Source: Alphaproteobacteria bacterium UBA2966
Lineage (GTDB): Bacteria > Pseudomonadota > Alphaproteobacteria > UBA2966
Assembly: GCA_002348365.1 (NCBI GenBank)
Contig: DEBC01000137.1
Span: 21,821-85,820 of the forward strand
Direction: 5' to 3'
Length of the DNA stretch: 64,000 nt
Below the pieces are notes generated by a model. It worked only from the letters and a program-made list of their open reading frames with translations. It was not told where the DNA came from and made no database searches. Shown one piece after another: positions 5,772-39,691 of this stretch (position 1 is its first letter; every line of letters begins with the position of its first letter). A program made the position numbers and the translations under genes.

Positions 5772-5979
5772 GAGATAACTCCTCAGAAAAATATATCTCT
5801 CTCGCCCGTCGTCCATGAGCGAGACTTTTAATTCCCTGCAAATTTCGACGACTCGTCGCCGGATTGCATTAATTGAGATTAGAGTCCGCCGGCTCTGGTT
5901 GAGGTGCAGCAAAGGACGCCACCATCCATTGACTTGACCTGGTAGAACGACGTCCTTAACGCTACCGGAACCATCAATC

Positions 5980-14475: not shown

Positions 14476-15741
14476 CTATAAGAGCCAATAGCGTAACGCC
14501 TCGGGCATCTCCACGTGCCGCCACATTCCCTTGATATCGGCGACGAGGCCTCCTCTTGCGACCAGTCGGCTGATCGCTACGGGGTCCAGTTGCGTGTATG
14601 CATCGTGCGCAACCGCACCCACCAGTGCGCCATACCCATCCCCAGAAAGATCCGGCAGTAGTTCCACCCCATAGCGCGCGACGGCTTCTTCTGGCGCGGC
14701 CATGATATCGTGGACGTCGACGGTGTGTCCGCGCGTCTCAAGTTGCCGAACAAGGTCGATAACCTTGGTGTTCCGAAGATCAGGTACGTTTTCCTTGAAC
14801 GTCAATCCCAAGACCAGGACCCGGCACGGCTCTGAAAGCAAATCGGCGATGCAATCGGCAATGAAGACGCCCATTCCGTCATTGATGCGACGCCCCGCAA
14901 GTATGACTTGAGGGTCGTACCCGATCTCCTGCGCGCGGTGGGCCAGGTAATAGGGATCGACGCCGATGCAATGCCCCCCCACCAATCCCGGCTTGAAAGG
15001 AAGGAAATTCCATTTGGTGCCCGCCGCCTCTAGTACGTCATGAGTGGAGATATCAAGCTTATGAAAGATCTCGGTAATCTCGTTGATGAACGCGATGTTT
15101 ATGTCGCGTTGAGCGTTTTCGATTACCTTGGCGGCTTCGGCAGTCCGTATGTCACGTGCGCGATGCAGATTACCGTTGGTGACGCGGCCGTATACCTCCA
15201 TCAGCCGGTCCGTGACCTCTTCGGTCTGCCCTGAAACCACTTTTGTGATCCGGTCGACGGTATGCTCACGGTCGCCGGGATTAATCCTTTCGGGGGAATA
15301 ACCAAGGAAGAAGTCCGCACCACACTTGAGACCAGCAGCCTCTTCCAGTGCGGGCCCACAGATCTCTTCCGTCGCACCTGGATAAACGGTGCTTTCCAGG
15401 ACAAATATGTCACCTGCTTTGAGCTGACTACCCACGAGATCACATGCCGCCCGCACGGCTGTGAGGTCGGGCACGTGGTCGGGCCCGACCGGAGTGGGCA
15501 CGGTTACGATGTGGATCGAACACGCAGCAATGTCCGACGGCTTCGATGTGAGCCGCAACTTCGCAGCGCGCAGAACTTCTGGAGTAATTTCACCCGTTCT
15601 GTCATAGCCATCGTCGAGCTCGGAAACACGGGTCTCATCGATGTCCAGTGCCACCACTGAAAAGTGTCTGGACAACCCGATCGCCAGTGGCAATCCGACA
15701 TATCCGAGGCCAATCACCGAAATCGCACTATCTGAGGTCAT
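14476..15741 (-). CDS. UDP-N-acetyl-D-glucosamine/galactosamine 6-dehydrogenase (TviB/WbpA/WbpO-like nucleotide-sugar dehydrogenase).
   Basis: N-terminal GxGxxG (ISVIGLGYVGLPLA), the catalytic Cys region (…GGHCIGVDPYYL…) and a UDPG-DH C-domain. Confidence 0.85.
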   Translation of the reverse strand: MTSDSAISVIGLGYVGLPLAIGLSRHFSVVALDIDETRVSELDDGYDRTGEITPEVLRAAKLRLTSKPSDIAACSIHIVTVPTPVGPDHVPDLTAVRAACDLVGSQLKAGDIFVLESTVYPGATEEICGPALEEAAGLKCGADFFLGYSPERINPGDREHTVDRITKVVSGQTEEVTDRLMEVYGRVTNGNLHRARDIRTAEAAKVIENAQRDINIAFINEITEIFHKLDISTHDVLEAAGTKWNFLPFKPGLVGGHCIGVDPYYLAHRAQEIGYDPQVILAGRRINDGMGVFIADCIADLLSEPCRVLVLGLTFKENVPDLRNTKVIDLVRQLETRGHTVDVHDIMAAPEEAVARYGVELLPDLSGDGYGALVGAVAHDAYTQLDPVAISRLVARGGLVADIKGMWRHVEMPEALRYWLL

Positions 15742-15873
15742 GACACCGCTTCGTCAGTGACAGGAAATGGCTCAACCCCAACTGATCGGAGCCGCCGCAT
15801 ACTGAGGCGCGCATTCCCAAGATGTCAACGACCAGAAAGGCCAGAAAAGTCGCAGATTCAAAGGAATAATGGC

Positions 15874-15919
15874 TTGACGTTCATCATATGAACAATATAG
15901 CGTTCGCGGCGTGAACGCT
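15874..15919 (+). promoter_or_regulatory. Promoter/operator-like motif TTGACG-N17-ATAGCGTTC-N5-GTGAACGCT, immediately upstream of the locus regulator gene.
   Basis: A -35-like TTGACG (15874-15879) is followed 17 nt later by ATAGCG. The AGCGTTC/GAACGCT inverted repeat (15899-15919) ends 8 nt before the ATG at 15927. A near-identical motif recurs at 37744-37791. Confidence 0.35.
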
Positions 15920-15926
15920 CGCCCAA

Positions 15927-16610
15927 ATGAATTGTGAGCAGAAGGATCAAGTCCTGAACGAAGAGACTTCAGCAGACGGACAACCGATCGACGCAGAGAG
16001 TCGTATCACTCTCGGCCTGCTAAATGCCGTCCATGAGAACAGTGGCGTCTCGCAGCGGTCCCTCTCGAACGAGCTGGGCATCGCGCTCGGACTCACAAAC
16101 GCCTACCTCAAAAGATGTGTTCGTAAAGGCTTGGTCAAAATGGCTCAAGCACCTGCGAACCGGTATGCCTATTACCTTACCCCACAAGGATTTGCGGAGA
16201 AGAGCCGGCTGACTGCCCGCTACCTGAGGCGATCATTCGATTTCTACAGAGAGGCTCGAAATGAATGTGAAGACCTTCTGCGTCATTGCGTGACCAGGGG
16301 CTGGCGGCGGATCGCGCTGGGCGGATTGGGAGAACTTGCAGAAATTGCAGTACTTTGCAGCCTGCAGCATGACGTTCAGCTGATCGCGGTAATTGATGCT
16401 CGCGTTGACCATGGTGAGTTCATGAAGGTGCCGATCAAGTCTTCGGTTGATGCTGCCAGTGAGTTGGATGCAATTGTCCTTACTGACGTGGCTAAACCAC
16501 AACAAACGTACGACACCTTGGCAAGCAAAGTCCCGCCAGGTCGCATTCTGACGCCTCCGCTTCTCAAGGTGTCGCGCACGCAGGGCGCCGAGGGTTCTTC
16601 AGAACAATGA
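15927..16610 (+). CDS. Winged helix-turn-helix (MarR-like) transcriptional regulator with a C-terminal Rossmann-like domain.
   Basis: …ITLGLLNAVHENSGVSQRSLSNELGIALGLTNAYLKRCVRKGLV… wHTH. It is the first gene of the plus-strand glycan operon. Confidence 0.6.
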   Translation: MNCEQKDQVLNEETSADGQPIDAESRITLGLLNAVHENSGVSQRSLSNELGIALGLTNAYLKRCVRKGLVKMAQAPANRYAYYLTPQGFAEKSRLTARYLRRSFDFYREARNECEDLLRHCVTRGWRRIALGGLGELAEIAVLCSLQHDVQLIAVIDARVDHGEFMKVPIKSSVDAASELDAIVLTDVAKPQQTYDTLASKVPPGRILTPPLLKVSRTQGAEGSSEQ

Positions 16611-17113
16611 ACTGCTGGTACGCCGTTTACACCAAAATGCAGCTCGAGGTCTGGGCGAAGAACAACCTCGAGGAGCGCGGATTTGAAGTGTACCTCCCGC
16701 GTTATCTCAAGCAACGCCGGCATGCACGGCGTACCGAAATTGTTCCACATCCCCTGTTTTCGAGATACCTCTTCGTGAACGTCGATATCGACGCAGGACA
16801 CCGGCCACGTGTGAATACGGCGCCCGGCGTCGCATATCTTGTGAGTTTTGGTGACCGTCCGGCGGCCGTCGCGGATGCGATCATTGAAGAAATCAAAAGC
16901 CGCGAGAATGAGGATGGATACGTTCGGTTAGGCCGTGGTCAAAAATTCGCCAAAGGCGACCGGGTGAAAATCAGTGATGGCGCGCTTTGTGATCACGTCG
17001 GTCTCTTTCAAACCGGCACCGATAATGAGCGCGTTGTCATATTGCTCGATCTCCTGGGCCGTTTGACGCGGGTTAAAGTGCCGCTCGATTCGCTCGTTCC
17101 GGGCGATTTTTGA
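16607..17113 (+). CDS. NusG-family transcription antiterminator paralogue (RfaH/UpxY/LoaP-like), locus-specific.
   Basis: NGN domain (WYAVYTKMQLEVWAKNNLEERGFEVYLP) plus a C-terminal KOW-like region (…KGDRVKISDGALCDHVGLF…). The ATGA overlap with the regulator gene is at 16607-16610. Confidence 0.7.
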   Translation: MNCWYAVYTKMQLEVWAKNNLEERGFEVYLPRYLKQRRHARRTEIVPHPLFSRYLFVNVDIDAGHRPRVNTAPGVAYLVSFGDRPAAVADAIIEEIKSRENEDGYVRLGRGQKFAKGDRVKISDGALCDHVGLFQTGTDNERVVILLDLLGRLTRVKVPLDSLVPGDF

Positions 17114-17180
17114 GTGGCATGTCGAATGAAGGCCAGGCCGGGATTCAACCGAATGCACCCGGCGTGCGGCAGCATGAGGA

Positions 17181-18146
17181 ATGATACTCTGCCGCCCAAT
17201 GAAACAGAATGATTTCGTGAATTCGCACTTCGACACCAAACTCGAAACTTTTGGCGCCTGTGAAATCTGCGGCTCAGATGACTGGACGATCGTGTACAAT
17301 GGGCCGGTCCGAGACGGTGAGTTTGGCTCACTAACCGAATCATCGACAATTGCTAGATGCGGAAACTGCACTGCCGACCGGCTTTCGGAAGACGATTGCA
17401 AAGATGAGGCTTTCTATGTCGGAGCGGACTATCGCAAGTCGCTCGGCCAGGAAGCTGACGCGGCGGCATTTCTGCAGAAGCACGAATCCATGCAATTAGA
17501 GAGATTGGAGGTACTGGATCCAAGTCTTCTGCGGAATAAGAAAATTGCCGACATCGGATGCGCGGCGGGAAGCTACCTCAATTATGCAAAGGGATTTGCC
17601 AGGGAAATCATAGCGATTGAGCCGGGAACCGCGTATCACGCATCCCTGCAAGATCGGGGATTCAAGACTTATGGCTTCACGTCAGATGCATTAGAAGAAC
17701 ATAAAGGGACCGTCGACTGGGCGATTAATTTTGAGACCATCGAACACATCGACAACCCTCGCACTTTCTTGACGGAAATTGTGGACCTGTTGAGGCCTGA
17801 AGGTCGCATAGCGATTAGTACCCCCAATAGAGATGATGCCATGCTCGAACTTGCGGGGGAATCGTATCGTCAGTTTTTCTATCGAGTTCACCACAGGTGG
17901 TATTTCGATAAGAATTCGCTGACGGAATGTGCTCGGCTCTGCGGCCTGGAATTGGAGTCTTATAGGTTCATCCAACGCTACAGCATTTCCAACGCGATGG
18001 TTTGGATCAGGGATGGCAGGCCCGGCGGCAACGTGAATATTCCTTGCGTCGATCATCCAATTCTCGATGCAGCGTGGCGACGCCACTTCGAGTCCAACGA
18101 AACTTCGGATTGGCTGTATGCAATATTCAAGCGCGCAGGATCTTGA
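17181..18146 (+). CDS. Class I SAM-dependent methyltransferase with an N-terminal Cys4 zinc ribbon.
   Basis: CEICGSDDW…CGNC ribbon, then …IADIGCAAGSYL… (motif I) and …LLRPEGRIAISTPN… An alternative ATG start is at 17199. Confidence 0.7.
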   Translation: MILCRPMKQNDFVNSHFDTKLETFGACEICGSDDWTIVYNGPVRDGEFGSLTESSTIARCGNCTADRLSEDDCKDEAFYVGADYRKSLGQEADAAAFLQKHESMQLERLEVLDPSLLRNKKIADIGCAAGSYLNYAKGFAREIIAIEPGTAYHASLQDRGFKTYGFTSDALEEHKGTVDWAINFETIEHIDNPRTFLTEIVDLLRPEGRIAISTPNRDDAMLELAGESYRQFFYRVHHRWYFDKNSLTECARLCGLELESYRFIQRYSISNAMVWIRDGRPGGNVNIPCVDHPILDAAWRRHFESNETSDWLYAIFKRAGS

Positions 18147-20639: not shown

Positions 20640-22178
20640 GTGCTTTTCAACTCATTCCATTTCATTCTCGGCTTCTTGCCAGTCGTGATTCTGTTGACAT
20701 GGTTTGCTACCTCGCGAATTGGGCGAACCACGGCTATTGGAAGTTTGATCTTGGCTTCACTGTTCTTCTACGGATGGTGGAACCCGTCTTTCCTGGCCTT
20801 GTTGGTCGCCTCTGTATCCGGGAACTACGCTCTTGGCGTTGTGCTCAGAACCTTGGCACGGCAGAAGCGACATCTGGTGGCGCGCATCGTCCTGATCACG
20901 GGTATCAGCGCCAATCTGGGTACGATCGGATACTTCAAGTATGCCGGGTTCCTTACCGAAATTATTTCGTCGCTGATTGCCATCGACTGGACTCTGGGTG
21001 CCATCGTCCTGCCGCTCGGAATTTCATTTTTTACGTTTCAACAGATCGCCTACATCGTCGACTGCGCGCACGAAAACGTCGATTCACACGGCTTCTTTGA
21101 CTATGCCCTGTTCGTCACATTCTTCCCTCAGCTGATTGCGGGACCGATCGTCTATCACCGTGACATACTGCCCCAAATTCGCAGTGGTGAGGCCGCATTC
21201 ATGTTCCGCACCTCGGACTTGGGAATAGGCGCCAAGATCTTCGCCTTCGGCCTGATCAAGAAAGTCGTCCTTGCGGACGGCATGGCCGTCTACGCCACGC
21301 CCGTGTTCGAAGCGGCTGACGCCGGCGCTACGCTGACCTTCATTGAGGCATGGGGCGGCGCGCTGGCTTACACACTCCAGCTATACTTCGATTTCAGCGG
21401 TTATTCGGACATGGCAATCGGACTCGGCCGGATGTTCGGACTGCGCCTGCCGATTAACTTTCGGGCACCCTACAAGGCGACGAGCATCATCGACTTCTGG
21501 CGCCGGTGGCACATCACGCTTTCGATGTTCCTGCGCAACTACCTCTACATCCCTCTCGGCGGAAACCGGCACGGCAAGTCGCGACGTTGGATCAATCTCA
21601 TGATCACAATGCTGCTGGGGGGACTGTGGCACGGAGCCGGATGGACCTTCGTCGTCTGGGGTGGGCTGCACGGTGCTTATCTCTGCCTCAACCATTTGTG
21701 GCGTCACGTCGCAAGGCGCGCCGGAATCAATCTGAAGGCATCGGCTGCCGGGCGGGTCGTCAGTTGGGGGGTGACGTTTCTCGCCGTCGTCATTGCATGG
21801 GTCTTTTTTCGAGCTGAGACATTCCACGGAGCGATCGGCGTGCTCTACGGTATGGCTGGGCTCAACGGCATTATTCTACCGGAGGCCTGGGCGGGTCGCC
21901 TCGCCTCTCTCCCCGCAGCACTGACGGTTTTCGGTCTCGGACCGACACCATATTTCACTGGTGCCGTGCAGGTGCTGATGACCGGATTGATCCTGATGAT
22001 CGCACTCTTTGCCCCAACGACCCAGCAATGGGTGAGGTGGCAATTTGATGGCGGCAGCACAGTCGGGCGATGGCGGTTGGGGACTGTCGTCGCAACAGGT
22101 TTCGGACTAATCGGCGGTTACACCATGATCAGGCTCTTTGTGGGTGGATACAGTGAATTCCTCTACTTCCAGTTCTAA
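20640..22178 (+). CDS. MBOAT-family membrane-bound O-acyltransferase (AlgI/DltB/PatA-like).
   Basis: ~10 TM helices plus the conserved His region …WRRWHITLSMFLRNYLYIPLGGNR…. Confidence 0.85.
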   Translation: MLFNSFHFILGFLPVVILLTWFATSRIGRTTAIGSLILASLFFYGWWNPSFLALLVASVSGNYALGVVLRTLARQKRHLVARIVLITGISANLGTIGYFKYAGFLTEIISSLIAIDWTLGAIVLPLGISFFTFQQIAYIVDCAHENVDSHGFFDYALFVTFFPQLIAGPIVYHRDILPQIRSGEAAFMFRTSDLGIGAKIFAFGLIKKVVLADGMAVYATPVFEAADAGATLTFIEAWGGALAYTLQLYFDFSGYSDMAIGLGRMFGLRLPINFRAPYKATSIIDFWRRWHITLSMFLRNYLYIPLGGNRHGKSRRWINLMITMLLGGLWHGAGWTFVVWGGLHGAYLCLNHLWRHVARRAGINLKASAAGRVVSWGVTFLAVVIAWVFFRAETFHGAIGVLYGMAGLNGIILPEAWAGRLASLPAALTVFGLGPTPYFTGAVQVLMTGLILMIALFAPTTQQWVRWQFDGGSTVGRWRLGTVVATGFGLIGGYTMIRLFVGGYSEFLYFQF

Positions 22179-35467: not shown

Positions 35468-36613
35468 TCAGTAGGTCATTTGCTTGTTGAGAAGATTCTG
35501 GTCCACAACAACCGTTGCCAGCACATCCGTTATGCGGCGGTATGCAGTGCCGTCCCCGAACGGGGGCTGGACGTCGCGAAGGCGTTGGCGGAACTCCTCG
35601 TCGGAGACACAACGTTCGATGGCCGTTCGTATGGCATCTCGATCGTAATCGACGTCCATAACGTTTGCCGCGCGTTCTCGGCCTTTCTGTCGCTCCCCGA
35701 TATTCACGGAGGGGAGCCCAAAGTAAGGCGCTTCTATCAGGGCTGCCGATGAGTTCCCCACAATACACGCCGCCAACTTTTCCAGGCCGATGAAGTCAGC
35801 CGCCGGAATGTTGCGATGTACTGAAAGACCGGGTGAGTCGGCGACTCGTTCGATCTCTGAAATGATGCCTTCGAAACCTTGATCAGAGCAGGGGTAAACC
35901 AGCATGGCGCGATGACCCGTGGCAACCACGGCGGCGACGGTTTCGGCCATCTGGTCAGCCGCTCTGTGAGACACAGTCGAATCCGAATGCTGGAGGACAA
36001 GCATGAACGGCGCTTCCTCACTCAGATCATACTTCGCGCGGAGTTCGTCCGCGGGCGTTATGTCGCCGAGAAACACCTGATCAATATGGGTATCGCCTAC
36101 GACATGCACACGCCATGGCTCCTCCCCCATCGCGACAATTCGATCTGCGGAGGCCTGCGTTGAAGGAAAATGAATATGGGCAAGCTTGGTGATCGCATGC
36201 CGAACGGGTTCGTCCAGGCTTCCGGAAATATCGCCGCCCTGCACGTGCGCGATTGCCACCCGCATGTTGTGCGCGGCAATACAGGCGGCAAACACTTCGC
36301 CTCTGTCTCCAATGACCAGAAGAATATCGGGCTGCAGGTCCCCGAGAACCTGAGCGGCTTTTGTCAGGCAGCGCCCTATCGCTCCCGCCCGGTCCCGATT
36401 GGAATCGCCTTCCTGTTCCATGTCGATTGTCGCCGACACCGGGAATCGGGCTTGAACTTCGGTCACCGTCTTACCGAACCGGTCATACAGGTGTTGATCG
36501 GTGACCACGAGTTGAAGCGACAAGTCTGGGCTTTGTTGGATGGCATCCATGGTAGGCGCCAAGGCGCCAAATCCCCCGCGCTTGCCGTTCCACACACAGA
36601 CACGACGCATCAC
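35468..36613 (-). CDS. neuC: UDP-N-acetylglucosamine 2-epimerase (hydrolysing), NeuC/LegG-type, copy 1.
   Basis: Epimerase_2 fold: …DLLLVIGDRGEVFAACIAAHNMRVAIAHVQGGD…VRHAITKLAHIHFPST…. Confidence 0.85.
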   Translation of the reverse strand: MMRRVCVWNGKRGGFGALAPTMDAIQQSPDLSLQLVVTDQHLYDRFGKTVTEVQARFPVSATIDMEQEGDSNRDRAGAIGRCLTKAAQVLGDLQPDILLVIGDRGEVFAACIAAHNMRVAIAHVQGGDISGSLDEPVRHAITKLAHIHFPSTQASADRIVAMGEEPWRVHVVGDTHIDQVFLGDITPADELRAKYDLSEEAPFMLVLQHSDSTVSHRAADQMAETVAAVVATGHRAMLVYPCSDQGFEGIISEIERVADSPGLSVHRNIPAADFIGLEKLAACIVGNSSAALIEAPYFGLPSVNIGERQKGRERAANVMDVDYDRDAIRTAIERCVSDEEFRQRLRDVQPPFGDGTAYRRITDVLATVVVDQNLLNKQMTY

Positions 36614-37641
36614 ACGAGGTCCTCGAACGACAAAGCTTCATCGGCGACGACATCTCTGGCCAGCGTCCGACCGATGAATTCGGGCAGACGGTTGGACAGA
36701 ACTCCAGTGCCGGGCCGCTTCGTCGCCAGATCTTCTCTGGAAATGATGAGCCCTTCGGCAAGGTCCCGTGACGCGACCACCGACTTCAAAGCCCATGCCT
36801 GAGCGTCCACTTCCGAGGGCGCGGGTTCCTTTCTGCCGTGTCCGAGCAACGTCTCGATCCGCCGGATGTCTCGAACGAGACCCGGAAAGTCGTCCGGACC
36901 TGCGGATACCCTCCAGTCCTGGGCATCTGGAATGTCACGCAGGATCGTAATGTGTTTCTCAACGATCGATGCGCCGCGCGCCACGGCAGACAAAATGGCC
37001 AGATGATCTTCGGTATGGTCGGAATATCCGACAGGTCCCGGAAAAATTGATTGGAGCGCATCCATGGCCGAGAGATTCACATCAGATTCAGGTGTCGGAT
37101 AACTCGTCACGCAGTGCAGCAGCGCGACTTCGTCCATTCCGGCGTTGGAGAGGGCATCGAGCGCTTCCGTTACATCGGATTCCCGGTACATGCCCGTCGA
37201 GACGATCATTGGCTTTCCGAGCTGGGCCAACTGGGAGAGAAACTCGGGATTGTTCCGTTCACCCGAACCCACTTTAACCGCCGGAACATCAAGCTCCCGC
37301 AACCAATCAATTCGCGAGGCATCATGCGCCGTCGCCATGAACAGAAGGCCCGCTGCATCGCAGCGTTCCTTCAGTTCCTGAAACTGGGGCAACGACAAGT
37401 TTCTCGGCCGGAGGCGGTCGCGCCAGTCGGGCGCCGACTCCGCGATGAGCTCATCCACGTCGAACACCTGTGTTTTAAAGATATCGGCACCCGCTTCCGC
37501 GGCGAGATCCACGAGTTGGCGGGCGAGATCCATATCGCCAAAGTGTGCAACGCCGGCCTCCGCAATCACGAAGACAGGCGCGTCCGCCCCGACTTCTCGA
37601 TCGCCGATTCGAAAGCGCGATTTGAATTTCGAGGCGGGCAT
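36610..37641 (-). CDS. neuB: N-acylneuraminate (nonulosonic acid) synthase, NeuB/LegI/PseI family, copy 1.
   Basis: …PVFVIAEAGVAHFGDMDLARQLVD…DIFKTQ… NeuB TIM barrel plus a C-terminal SAF/antifreeze-like domain (…ATKRPGTGVL…). The ATGA overlap with neuC is at 36610-36613. Confidence 0.85.
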   Translation of the reverse strand: MPASKFKSRFRIGDREVGADAPVFVIAEAGVAHFGDMDLARQLVDLAAEAGADIFKTQVFDVDELIAESAPDWRDRLRPRNLSLPQFQELKERCDAAGLLFMATAHDASRIDWLRELDVPAVKVGSGERNNPEFLSQLAQLGKPMIVSTGMYRESDVTEALDALSNAGMDEVALLHCVTSYPTPESDVNLSAMDALQSIFPGPVGYSDHTEDHLAILSAVARGASIVEKHITILRDIPDAQDWRVSAGPDDFPGLVRDIRRIETLLGHGRKEPAPSEVDAQAWALKSVVASRDLAEGLIISREDLATKRPGTGVLSNRLPEFIGRTLARDVVADEALSFEDLV

Positions 37642-37743
37642 TCGGCTAGAAACCTTGCAATTTGGTGCGCATCTGCACGTTCGGATGCAGGCCCTTCACG
37701 CCTTCGAGGGGTTCGAATTCTGACATGATTCAAGCCTAAACCC

Positions 37744-37798
37744 TTGACGAACCTTCGATTAACAGCATAGCGTTCACACGATGAACACGCTGGCGGTA
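37744..37798 (+). promoter_or_regulatory. Second copy of the TTGACG-N17-ATAGCGTTC…TGAACACGCT motif, plus a sigma70-like TTCACA-N18-TATGAT promoter facing the ABC exporter gene.
   Basis: TTGACG is at 37744-37749, ATAGCGTTC at 37767-37775 and TGAACACGCT at 37782-37791. TATGAT (37794-37799) lies 18 nt downstream of TTCACA (37770-37775). The motif sits in the divergent neuB1 / ABC-exporter intergenic region. Confidence 0.35.
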
Positions 37799-37945
37799 TG
37801 ATGCGTCACTTGGCCCAGGCTGTAAAGCGTCGATGAGTGGTGCGGCGGGTGGTCGAGAGCACCATCGAGTTTGCTCCCAGCGCCCGCGGTATCGCCTCCA
37901 TAGGACCTATGTACCGCACCCGGAACACCAAGAGAGAGAGAATTC

Positions 37946-39691
37946 TTGAACCGACGGTTCGAAACACTTGGAAAAATCCGCCACCTCATCGCTAGGCGCG
38001 AATGGATCATTCTCGGACTCTGTTGCCTGATGCTCCTTGCCTCAGTCGCTGAGAGCATGGGACTGGCTCTTGTTCTCCCGCTGATCTCCAGTCTCACCGG
38101 TGTATCCGAGGGTTCCGGCACGGTTGCTGAGATTAGTGTAAGACTGCGGGAACTGATCCCTGATGGGGTTGAGCTTGAAGGCCTGGTGTTATTGGTGGCC
38201 CTGGCGTTTCTGCTCAAAGGCGTTCTTCTGGTGATGTCTCGTGGCGCCGCCGACTATTTCTCCTTCCGTCTGCGTGAAGACTGGGCCGCAAAGATTTTTG
38301 ATCACTACCTGCGCGCCCGCTATGCCTACGCGACGTCGCAGCGGCAGGGCGAGATGGTGAACAACATCACGATCGAGCCTTATCGGGCCGCCCGGGCGAT
38401 CACCGTCCTTCTCGATTTCTTGAATCGGATAATTCTGGCGACCGTGCTGCTTACAGTCCTGCTCTTCACCAACTGGCAGGCGACACTGACTATTTCGCTG
38501 GTTGGCGCGCTTCTGTTCTTTGCCGTTCGCAAGTCCACATTCAACTACTCCCTTCACTTCGGCAAGCTGCGCCAGAAGCTCTACCAGCAAATTTCATCCA
38601 TAGGAGCCGAAGCCACCGGGGCGGCCCTTCAGGTGAAGCTGTTCGGAATCTACGACCAGGTGACGGGAGAATTGACCGCCAGGCTCAAACGACACACGCG
38701 TGCTGAGACACTCTTTCGAATTCTCAATGAGATCCCTCTCCAGTCGACCGAATTCCTCATCGTCCTTTTCCTGAGCGTTGCGCTGATCACCCTCAAACAG
38801 GTGGGCGACGTCGCACCGGAAAGCATTGCGGCAATGTTGGGCTTTTATGTTGTGCTCGGTCAGCGGCTTCTCACCAACGTCAATTTCATCATTTCGCGAC
38901 GGATGAAGATTGCCTCACAGATCCCGTCACTGATGCTGATGCATGAGCTGATTGAGAACATTCCCGACCGCGAAGACATCGAAACAGGTCAGGAACTCGC
39001 AACCCTTGACGACGACATTGTCTTCGAGAATGTGACCTTCAGCCATGAGAACGGCAAGCGCGTTTTCCGCGATCTCAACCTGCGTATACCCAAAGGGAAA
39101 ATCACCGGAATCGTTGGCCCATCCGGCACCGGCAAGTCAACGTTCGCCGACCTCATCCTGGGTCTATATGCTCCCGATCACGGGAGTGTCAGCGTCGGGG
39201 GTCATGTGCTCTCGACATATAATCTCCGATCGGTCCGCCAGCGAATTGGGTACGTGAGCCAAGCCCCCGAAATCTTCAATACTTCGATCCGAGAGAACAT
39301 ACGGATTGGCAATCCCAGCGCATCTGAGGATGAAGTGGTTGCAGCTGCCCGCGATGCCCATGCCTTCGATTTTGTTGCCGAACTGCCCGACGGTTTCGAT
39401 ACCGTTGTCGGAGATCGTGGCGTGAAGTTGTCGGGCGGACAGAGGCAGCGGATCGCGATCGCGCGGGTCATTCTGCGCGCACCCGATCTTTACATTTTCG
39501 ACGAGGCGACAAGCGCCCTCGACACTGAATCGGAACGCCTCATTCAAGACTCGATCCAACGTCTTGCGCACAACGCGACAATTGTCATCATCGCGCACCG
39601 CCTCTCCACGGTGCAATCAGCCGACGTGATTTACGAACTCGATGACACCGGAAAAGCGACAGCGCGCGAATTTTCCGAGATTGCTGTATAG
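37946..39691 (+). CDS. ABC transporter, fused permease/ATPase (MsbA/PglK/NdvA-like type I exporter).
   Basis: Six N-terminal TM helices, Walker A GPSGTGKST, the signature LSGGQRQRIAIAR and Walker B IFDEATSALD. The TTG start at 37946 has an AGAGAGAGA RBS. Confidence 0.85.
   Translation: MNRRFETLGKIRHLIARREWIILGLCCLMLLASVAESMGLALVLPLISSLTGVSEGSGTVAEISVRLRELIPDGVELEGLVLLVALAFLLKGVLLVMSRGAADYFSFRLREDWAAKIFDHYLRARYAYATSQRQGEMVNNITIEPYRAARAITVLLDFLNRIILATVLLTVLLFTNWQATLTISLVGALLFFAVRKSTFNYSLHFGKLRQKLYQQISSIGAEATGAALQVKLFGIYDQVTGELTARLKRHTRAETLFRILNEIPLQSTEFLIVLFLSVALITLKQVGDVAPESIAAMLGFYVVLGQRLLTNVNFIISRRMKIASQIPSLMLMHELIENIPDREDIETGQELATLDDDIVFENVTFSHENGKRVFRDLNLRIPKGKITGIVGPSGTGKSTFADLILGLYAPDHGSVSVGGHVLSTYNLRSVRQRIGYVSQAPEIFNTSIRENIRIGNPSASEDEVVAAARDAHAFDFVAELPDGFDTVVGDRGVKLSGGQRQRIAIARVILRAPDLYIFDEATSALDTESERLIQDSIQRLAHNATIVIIAHRLSTVQSADVIYELDDTGKATAREFSEIAV

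Follow-up and report, generated by a model that had tools for sequence, protein, structure and literature searches.

The motif and its gene setting

We analysed a 64-kb stretch of DNA (64,000 nucleotides, hereafter the window) from Alphaproteobacteria bacterium UBA2966, contig DEBC01000137.1, and concentrated on a sequence of about 46 bp that stands at two control points of a glycan locus. Site 1, cTTGACGTTCATCATATGAACAATATAGCGTTCGCGGCGTGAACGCT, starts with TTGACG at 15874-15879 and has its last base at 15919, leaving a gap of 7 nt before the ATG (15927) of a gene for a winged helix-turn-helix (wHTH) regulator. Site 2, cTTGACGAACCTTCGATTAACAGCATAGCGTTCACACGATGAACACGCT, occupies 37744-37791 between divergent genes for NeuB and an ATP-binding cassette (ABC) exporter. 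The genes next to the two sites are as follows.

14476-15741, minus strand, UDP-glucose/GDP-mannose dehydrogenase gene
15927-16610, plus strand, wHTH regulator gene, 227 amino acids (HTH_24, E 2.8e-10; product presumed to bind the palindromes described below)
16607-17113, plus strand, gene for an RfaH-like NusG paralogue, 168 amino acids (PF02357 NusG NGN domain, E 8.5e-16)
36610-37641, minus strand, NeuB gene
37946-39691, plus strand, ABC exporter gene (ABC_tran and ABC_membrane), leading the operon downstream of site 2

The start of the NusG-paralogue gene overlaps the wHTH stop by 4 nt, and a second NeuB gene comes next after the ABC exporter gene. An earlier note, made on this DNA from its letters, had proposed near-identical sequences at two control points, and both were located where it had placed them; domain matches upheld its gene assignments (wHTH, NusG paralogue, NeuB and ABC exporter) as well. 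The composite motif TTGACG-N15-19-ATAGCGTTC matched twice in the window and not once in 100 dinucleotide-preserving shuffles, and the exact 9-mer ATAGCGTTC was found in the window at sites 1 and 2 only.

Palindromes upstream of the wHTH gene

We gathered 409 proteins related to the NusG paralogue and took 80 loci from alphaproteobacterial genomes and metagenome-assembled genomes (MAGs). In 75 of these 80 loci the gene immediately before that of the NusG paralogue encodes a wHTH homologue; carriers included marine Rhodospirillales-like MAGs, Afipia, Nitrobacter, Bradyrhizobium and Kiloniella, with the gene pair at the head of polysaccharide loci, and the wHTH family has thousands of metagenome members. 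We scanned the 300 bp before the wHTH gene in 76 sequences, namely the 75 loci with a wHTH gene and the window, and GTTC-N7-GAAC was present in 73 of them, across diverse Alphaproteobacteria. Most loci carried a tandem pair and some carried three or four copies. Successive palindromes (n = 67) were spaced by 23 bp in 36 cases, by 22 bp in nine and by 27 bp in another nine.

Position counts yielded a 15-bp palindrome, GTTCAYnnnRTGAAC, whose GTTC and GAAC were invariant in 140/140 sites; the adjoining A was present in 124/140 and the adjoining T in 121/140, and the centre was variable. The earlier note had described a single inverted repeat per site with a core of 7-bp arms (AGCGTTC/GAACGCT), next to a plain promoter of the form TTGACG-N17, and these details had to be revised. 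Site 1 contains two palindromes, the first of which fills the "N17", so that the supposed spacer is actually occupied, and the 7-bp arms are merely a local extension of the 15-bp core, imperfect at site 2. The palindromes in the window are listed below (no strand is assigned to any of them).

15879-15893, putative operator palindrome O1, GTTCATCATATGAAC, an exact match to GTTCAnnnnnTGAAC that fills the -35/-10 spacer
15902-15916, putative operator palindrome O2, GTTCGCGGCGTGAAC, one mismatch to the consensus, 23 bp after O1 and over the -10 and the expected start
15945-15959, possible weak third site, GATCAAGTCCTGAAC, one mismatch, within the wHTH N-terminal codons and 43 bp after O2
37749-37763, degenerate remnant of a spacer palindrome, GAACCTTCGATTAAC, in the O1-equivalent place of site 2, three mismatches, conserved in the related loci L081 and L082
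37772-37786, putative operator palindrome of site 2, GTTCACACGATGAAC, an exact match

The position of O1 is that of the family's invariant element, and a palindrome occurs there in every locus type. Among relatives at 82-90% protein identity, the half-sites were kept at both sites and the centres had changed: O2 was retained with a changed centre in L085-L087, and the centre of the site 2 palindrome went from CACGA to TTTCA in L081/L082 with its half-sites intact. The GATCAAGTCCTGAAC palindrome at 15945-15959 may act as a weak third operator. CTGAACGA was invariant in the four close relatives despite an otherwise variable wHTH N-terminus.

The variation itself was informative. At positions 5 and 11 the pairings were A-T in 111 cases, A-C in 19 and G-T in 14, with G-C in none, and positions 6 (Y) and 10 (R) varied independently, their bases combining at random. 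Compensatory double changes in the palindromes numbered 0, that is, no base-pair covariation was detected. Because the half-sites are fixed, the centre is free and compensatory changes are absent, this pattern points to a site at which a dimer reads duplex DNA, not to a hairpin.

Association of the palindrome with the wHTH gene

The exact palindrome GTTCAnnnnnTGAAC was counted in 823 kb of related loci, where it occurred 110 times, with 104 copies upstream of wHTH genes and six elsewhere (about 0.8 expected elsewhere). Two of these six belong to the operon promoter of L050, in which the gene order is reversed. A third of the six, in the Afipia massiliensis locus (L065:10954), belongs to a second unit of TTGAC, palindrome and TA that stands 5.6 kb downstream and is the counterpart of window site 2. 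One marine contig (L164, 2503-2574) carries two divergent copies of the TTGAC-palindrome-TA unit that are not at wHTH genes. The extra units of L065 and L164 suggest small multi-promoter regulons.

Five loci have the NusG paralogue and no wHTH gene, and the palindrome pair was absent or decayed in 5/5 of them. Since loci that have the NusG paralogue without the wHTH gene do not keep the palindrome pair, the motif follows the wHTH gene and not the NusG paralogue. In L040, labelled as a Rhodoplanes piscinae MAG, the wHTH gene has been lost, and at approximately 5870-5900 TTGACGTTCA is kept while the right half has decayed; this locus still has the ops-like element described below after its NusG paralogue, and amounts to a natural dissection of operator and ops-like element.

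Within the window, GTTCAnnnnnTGAAC with at most one mismatch was found nine times against 2.0 expected, and exact palindromes were two, one at each site. The near-palindromes at 22172, 27936, 30061, 33087 and 55236 were set aside as chance matches, being intragenic, devoid of a -35 and within the shuffle range. An Rfam scan of the whole window at gathering thresholds gave 0 matches, and blastn of 15700-17200 against a plasmid collection gave none. A generic dispersed repeat of the REP or MITE type was rejected with only 6 of the 110 copies off wHTH promoters in 823 kb; many unrelated occurrences would have spoken for such a repeat according to the earlier note, and what we found was two exact copies in the window and a strong concentration at wHTH promoters.

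We also scanned metagenomes for the pattern TTGACGTTCAnnnnnTGAAC, and the figures given here hold among the matches listed (80 loci, 75 assessable). A wHTH homologue was directly downstream in 30 of the 75 assessable matches listed, and of the 45 listed without a wHTH gene, many were chance hits inside genes. Seven further matches among those listed head glycan-type genes by Pfam, namely genes for an FkbM methyltransferase, a GFO/IDH/MocA oxidoreductase, a carbamoyltransferase, a CMP-sugar-type cytidylyltransferase, a PhyH dioxygenase, an initiating sugar transferase and a GT1 glycosyltransferase; these seven were chosen by eye as glycan-looking from 14 downstream open reading frames, and are illustrative and no measure of enrichment.

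Promoter context

The palindromes are combined with promoter-like hexamers in the same arrangement at both sites.

15874-15879, plus strand, -35 TTGACG of site 1, wHTH/NusG-paralogue operon; among 58 loci, 43-48 have TTGAC directly against the distal palindrome
15898-15903, plus strand, -10-like TAGCGT of site 1, 18 nt after TTGACG
37744-37749, plus strand, -35 TTGACG of site 2, ABC-exporter side, with the geometry of site 1, conserved in L081 and L082
37768-37773, plus strand, -10-like TAGCGT of site 2, 18 nt after TTGACG

TTGAC lacks a symmetrical counterpart at the 3' edge and therefore does not belong to the palindrome. TA was found at the fifth and sixth nucleotides after TGAAC in 39 and 37 of 58 loci, respectively, and it persists in Afipia, Nitrobacter and Bradyrhizobium loci that have no following palindrome and carry their extra palindrome 27 bp upstream. 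The invariant unit can be written as cTTGAC-GTTCAYnnnRTGAAC-nnnn-TAnnnT, with the -35 and -10 hexamers 18 nt apart and the palindrome as their spacer, and the -10 and the expected start are covered by O2 at site 1 and by 37772-37786 at site 2. With TTGAC conserved against the palindrome and TA conserved 18-19 nt later, a promoter is predicted, and the motif appears, judging by this conservation, to be a sigma70-type promoter with an embedded operator.

The earlier note had stressed the proximity of the motif to the wHTH start codon. This is correct for the window (7 nt) and is specific to it: the relatives L085-L087, at 82-86% NusG-paralogue identity, have about 25-30 nt more leader, and it is the deletion of this stretch that brings the operator almost up to the ATG in the window.

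Some features of site 2 were noted in addition. A promoter-like site on the minus strand, facing neuB, lies directly upstream of the site 2 palindrome. The non-palindromic spacer CTTGACGAACCTTCGATT (37743-37763) is identical in L081/L082, as are the boxes TATGATGCGTCAC and CTGTAAAG within 37797-37830. The boxes fit overlapping divergent promoters, TTCACA-N18-TATGAT on the plus strand and TTTACA-N17-CATCAT on the minus strand; with such an overlap, one symmetric operator could affect both the exporter operon and the neuB operon.

Origin of the second copy

Comparison of gene orders suggested how the window came to have two sites. At 1-1627 of L087, two transposase genes (DDE_Tnp_1 and Transposase_mut) replace the UDP-sugar dehydrogenase gene upstream of site 1, and similarity to the window resumes about 10 nt before the -35, which marks the edge of a self-contained module. 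In the more distant relatives L083 (1717-4815) and L084 (1665-4797), the genes for the wHTH protein, NusG paralogue, ABC exporter, NeuB, epimerase and methyltransferase form one operon behind a single promoter/operator, with the exporter orthologue directly after the NusG paralogue. The lineage of the window (also L081/L082 and L085/L086) has the exporter-NeuB-epimerase block as a separate unit about 21 kb away; this unit has its own promoter copy, with a decayed palindrome (GAACCTTCGATTAAC) in the spacer and a perfect one over the -10/+1. Site 2 would accordingly exist because an ancestral operon of wHTH, NusG-paralogue, ABC exporter, NeuB and epimerase genes split in the window lineage.

The wHTH regulator protein

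The regulator matched HTH_24 with 40 bits (cut-off 21.9) and MarR_2 with 20.6 bits (cut-off 27), and its N-terminal 100 amino acids resemble the EPS-associated family TIGR04176 MarR_EPS (70.5 bits, cut-off 88). The AlphaFold2 model reached a predicted local distance difference test (pLDDT) score of 77 as a whole and contained a confident Rossmann-like alpha/beta domain at the C-terminus (pLDDT >90), comprising residues ~122-227 (16290-16610) with the conserved segment IALGGLGELAEIA. No Pfam family matched this C-terminal domain, which, going by the modelled fold, may sense a nucleotide or a nucleotide-sugar. Foldseek against the PDB returned nothing significant, with weak matches to CoA-binding/Rossmann domains and to a Rex-family repressor; the latter was RSP (3wg9; E 0.05, TM ~0.3). 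Identity with Rex was rejected, as neither the Pfam Rex N-terminal domain nor CoA_binding matched, and the Rex-like architecture of the model serves as a lead only.

An ops-like element after the NusG-paralogue gene

Two sequences resembling the E. coli ops element were considered.

17137-17176, plus strand, hairpin and ops-like element, window copy GCGGCAGCATG, with the hairpin at 17137-17163 and the core TGCGGCAGCATG at 17165-17176
37792-37803, plus strand, ops-resembling GGCGGTATGATG in the site 2 leader, agreeing at 9 of 10 specified ops positions and including the only exact GGCGGTAnnnTG in the window

The first belongs to a conserved family. Of 84 loci, 43 contain a 22-mer, TCACCCGGACTGCGGTAGCGTG, with at most six mismatches, at a distance of 40-145 nt downstream of the stop codon of the NusG-paralogue gene, and in 10 of them the match is perfect; random 300-nt segments of the same loci contained it at that threshold in 6 of 1835 cases. 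The 64 kb hold one site of this kind, the window copy GCACCCGGCGTGCGGCAGCATG at 17155-17176, which is conserved in L085-L087 as well. The whole element ends 5 nt before the methyltransferase start. The family core consensus is GCGGTAGCGTG, and the last 11-12 nt of TCACCCGGACTGCGGTAGCGTG equal E. coli ops12, GGCGGTAGCGTG (Zuber et al., 2018, PMC5995543). TCACCCGG forms the 3' arm of the hairpin; the opposite arm co-varies and differs in position from sequence to sequence. This shift hides the hairpin from RNAalifold when the ops alignment is ungapped, and in per-sequence folding the hairpin was paired in 40 of 42 sequences (mean z -1.7). The candidate loading site of the NusG paralogue is most likely this element at 17137-17176, not the 46-bp motif.

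The NusG paralogue had its best NCBIfam match to RfaH (TIGR01955, 124.7 bits, cut-off 144.5) and its best PDB relative in E. coli RfaH (E 6.8e-13; NusG 1.6e-5). Of the residues through which RfaH contacts ops (K10, H20, R23, Q24 and R73), the alignment shows K10 alone retained; H20 is replaced by N, R23 by E, Q24 by R and R73 by P. Judging from the alignment, the NusG paralogue may recognise ops through different contacts.

The second sequence, GGCGGTATGATG, was rejected as an ops element, since the number of near matches was not above chance and it differs at the family-invariant G8C9. It is also not conserved, L081 having TGCAGTATGATG and L082 CGCGATATGATG in its place, and is probably not functional as ops.

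Proposed operator function and alternative explanations

The earlier suggestion of an autoregulated operator overlapping the -35 and -10 received strong comparative support from these analyses (73/76 loci with a wHTH gene; 104/110 copies at wHTH promoters; 0/5 loci without the wHTH gene). On this comparative evidence the palindromes are very likely the operator of the wHTH protein, and probably an autoregulatory operator through which it represses. The fuller statement, which includes repression as well as the promoter geometry, we hold to be likely.

The mechanism would then run as follows. A wHTH dimer would read two half-sites of 5-6 bp one helical turn apart, and the tandem sites, about two turns apart, would accommodate two dimers side by side. 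Occupation of the spacer and of the -10/+1 region would, to judge from position, exclude RNA polymerase, and the wHTH protein would in this way repress its own operon, that is, the wHTH gene, the NusG-paralogue gene and the following glycan genes. Through site 2 it would also repress the operon of the ABC exporter and the second NeuB, which would have retained or acquired a promoter/operator copy when the ancestral operon split, and the divergent neuB operon might be affected too. More speculatively, a ligand of the Rossmann-like C-terminal domain could relieve the repression. The NusG paralogue would act at a separate step, most likely by loading on RNA polymerase at the hairpin and ops-like element at 17137-17176.

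Several points weigh against this account. The matches of the wHTH protein to MarR-type models are under their cut-offs, and the wHTH part of the AlphaFold2 model has low confidence (pLDDT 50-70). Consensus and conservation are the whole basis of the promoter assignment; a simple promoter scan made no call at site 1, because the -10 is weak, and at site 2 it is TTCACA-N18-TATGAT that scores better, with a -35 that overlaps the palindrome at 37772-37786 differently. In the window only about 15-18 nt separate the predicted transcription start from the start codon, and a clear Shine-Dalgarno sequence is lacking. Position is also the whole basis for preferring repression to activation, with an activator that binds the spacer as the alternative. 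Such an activator might act as MerR does and remodel the 18-nt spacer, or a ligand might switch the wHTH protein between repression and activation. The spacer of 18 nt is slightly long, the -10 TAGCGT is poor and site 1 went uncalled in the promoter scan, and a weak promoter of this kind suits an activator; the Afipia/Nitrobacter/Bradyrhizobium type, moreover, has its second palindrome near -51, 27 bp further upstream than the spacer site, a location typical of activators. However, the invariant site fills the spacer, the second site lies over the -10/+1 in the window lineage, and the protein is a wHTH and not a MerR-type regulator. Sites in the spacer and over the -10/+1 are positions typical of bacterial repressors. 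We therefore regard activation as unlikely.

That the link to the wHTH gene is merely positional, with a regulator encoded elsewhere binding the palindromes or with the palindromes being a generic repeat, is very improbable. The scan for the motif within the source organism covered 64 kb of its genome, and binding by the wHTH protein is deduced from sequence, both of which leave some room for this explanation; yet the site tracks the wHTH gene in presence and absence, nearly all exact copies in the related loci are at wHTH promoters, and the window's remaining near matches lie inside genes and have no -35, with neither an Rfam family nor a plasmid match.

The earlier note had also offered the 46-bp motif as a recruitment site for the NusG paralogue. 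In its favour, two hairpins form when site 1 is folded as RNA (-16.2 kcal/mol, z -2.5), and known NusG paralogues use hairpins, in the non-template DNA in the case of RfaH (PMC5995543) or in DNA together with nascent RNA hairpins in the case of UpxY (PMC11685472). On the other side, site 2 showed no excess folding (z -0.05), the motif is gone in loci that lack the wHTH gene and retain the NusG paralogue, the palindromes have 0 compensatory changes and frequent A-C combinations, and a different element, ops-like and sharing the core of E. coli ops, is conserved downstream of the NusG-paralogue gene. Nothing ops-like was found within 15874-15919 or 37744-37791 with the ops consensus GGCGGTAGnnTG on the non-template strand. 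If the predicted promoter is right, the palindrome would also be untranscribed, because it lies between the -35 and the -10, and in the Afipia type both palindromes lie upstream of the -10. The recruitment proposal was accordingly abandoned, and we consider it extremely improbable that the palindromes are a hairpin or recruitment site for the NusG paralogue. An RNA or DNA hairpin as such was rejected for lack of covariation and on account of the position of the palindromes, and a structured RNA element (a leader hairpin of the LoaP type or an Rfam family) for the absence of compensatory changes and of Rfam matches.

The wHTH regulator and the RfaH-like factor are translationally coupled through the 4-nt overlap of their genes, and the two proteins might also be in physical contact; the wHTH protein on its operator would then govern initiation and, in addition, how far the elongation factor is available or loaded. 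We consider such a linked action quite improbable. If true, the glycan operon of about 10 kb would need two cis-encoded keys, derepression at GTTCAYnnnRTGAAC and ops-dependent loading at 17137-17176, with a nucleotide-sugar-like ligand in the Rossmann-like domain perhaps involved, and the pair would represent a class of regulators that place a specialised NusG paralogue under the control of a transcription factor bound to DNA.

The operator GTTCAYnnnRTGAAC inside TTGAC-N18-TAnnnT provides a search pattern for the regulon and a substrate for binding and reporter work. The interest of the system rests mainly on the wide conservation of the module and on the testable ops-like site alongside it.

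Comparison with known regulatory systems

Autoregulatory operators of the MarR type, such as marO bound by MarR, are palindromic, have half-sites about one helical turn apart, lie over the -35/-10 of the regulator's own promoter and often occur in two copies. The present palindrome resembles them in its symmetry and half-site spacing and, if the predicted promoter is right, in standing in the promoter of a wHTH regulator's own operon, and the regulator in its HTH_24 match and its weaker MarR_2 and TIGR04176 matches. In contrast to MarR, the protein has about 110 extra C-terminal residues that form a Rossmann-like domain, and the operon also encodes an RfaH-like elongation factor. Rex proteins, of ~210-230 amino acids, likewise combine a wHTH with a Rossmann-like domain, and their palindromic ROP operator contains TTCA and TGAA. 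Both the architecture and the presence of TTCA/TGAA in the palindrome are shared here, whereas the half-sites are reversed, GTTCA..TGAAC in our sites against TGTGAA..TTCACA in ROP.

An RfaH-like NusG paralogue beside an HTH regulator gene has been reported in polysaccharide loci, as a gene neighbourhood only (Wang et al., 2020, PMC7593976), and the gene pair described here is very probably the same as the pair called CL4 in that study. Our literature searches for the motif or for an alphaproteobacterial MarR/RfaH pair found the CL4 remark in that paper alone, and no description of the operator or of an alphaproteobacterial ops-like element was found in the literature searched. According to that study, the mode of recruitment is known for E. 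coli RfaH alone (PMC7593976). A near-canonical ops with a preceding hairpin makes RfaH-like recruitment outside Enterobacteria, a question raised in the same paper, testable, and this may matter more than the operator. The family element resembles E. coli ops in ending in GCGGTAGCGTG, and in L041 and L077 in GGCGGTAGCGTG itself; unlike in E. coli, the core in the window is TGCGGCAGCATG, and the gene for the factor precedes the site in cis. The 46-bp motif, a different element, is without ops.

The capsule operons of Bacteroides offer another parallel, as their first two genes encode a locus-specific NusG paralogue, UpxY, and a second regulator, UpxZ (Saba et al., 2024, PMC11685472). Recruitment of UpxY depends on transcribed DNA, aided by a hairpin just upstream (PMC11685472), and the hairpin and ops-like arrangement at 17137-17176, together with a regulator pair at the head of a long glycan operon, is similar. 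The partner in our locus is, by contrast, a DNA-binding wHTH protein that is encoded first and has its operator in the promoter, not an anti-NusG protein, and control would appear to be exerted at initiation and elongation rather than by cross-inhibition between loci. Taken together, these comparisons suggest that the operator is of a familiar type, the autoregulatory wHTH operator, set within a module that would join the control of initiation to a cis-encoded elongation factor.

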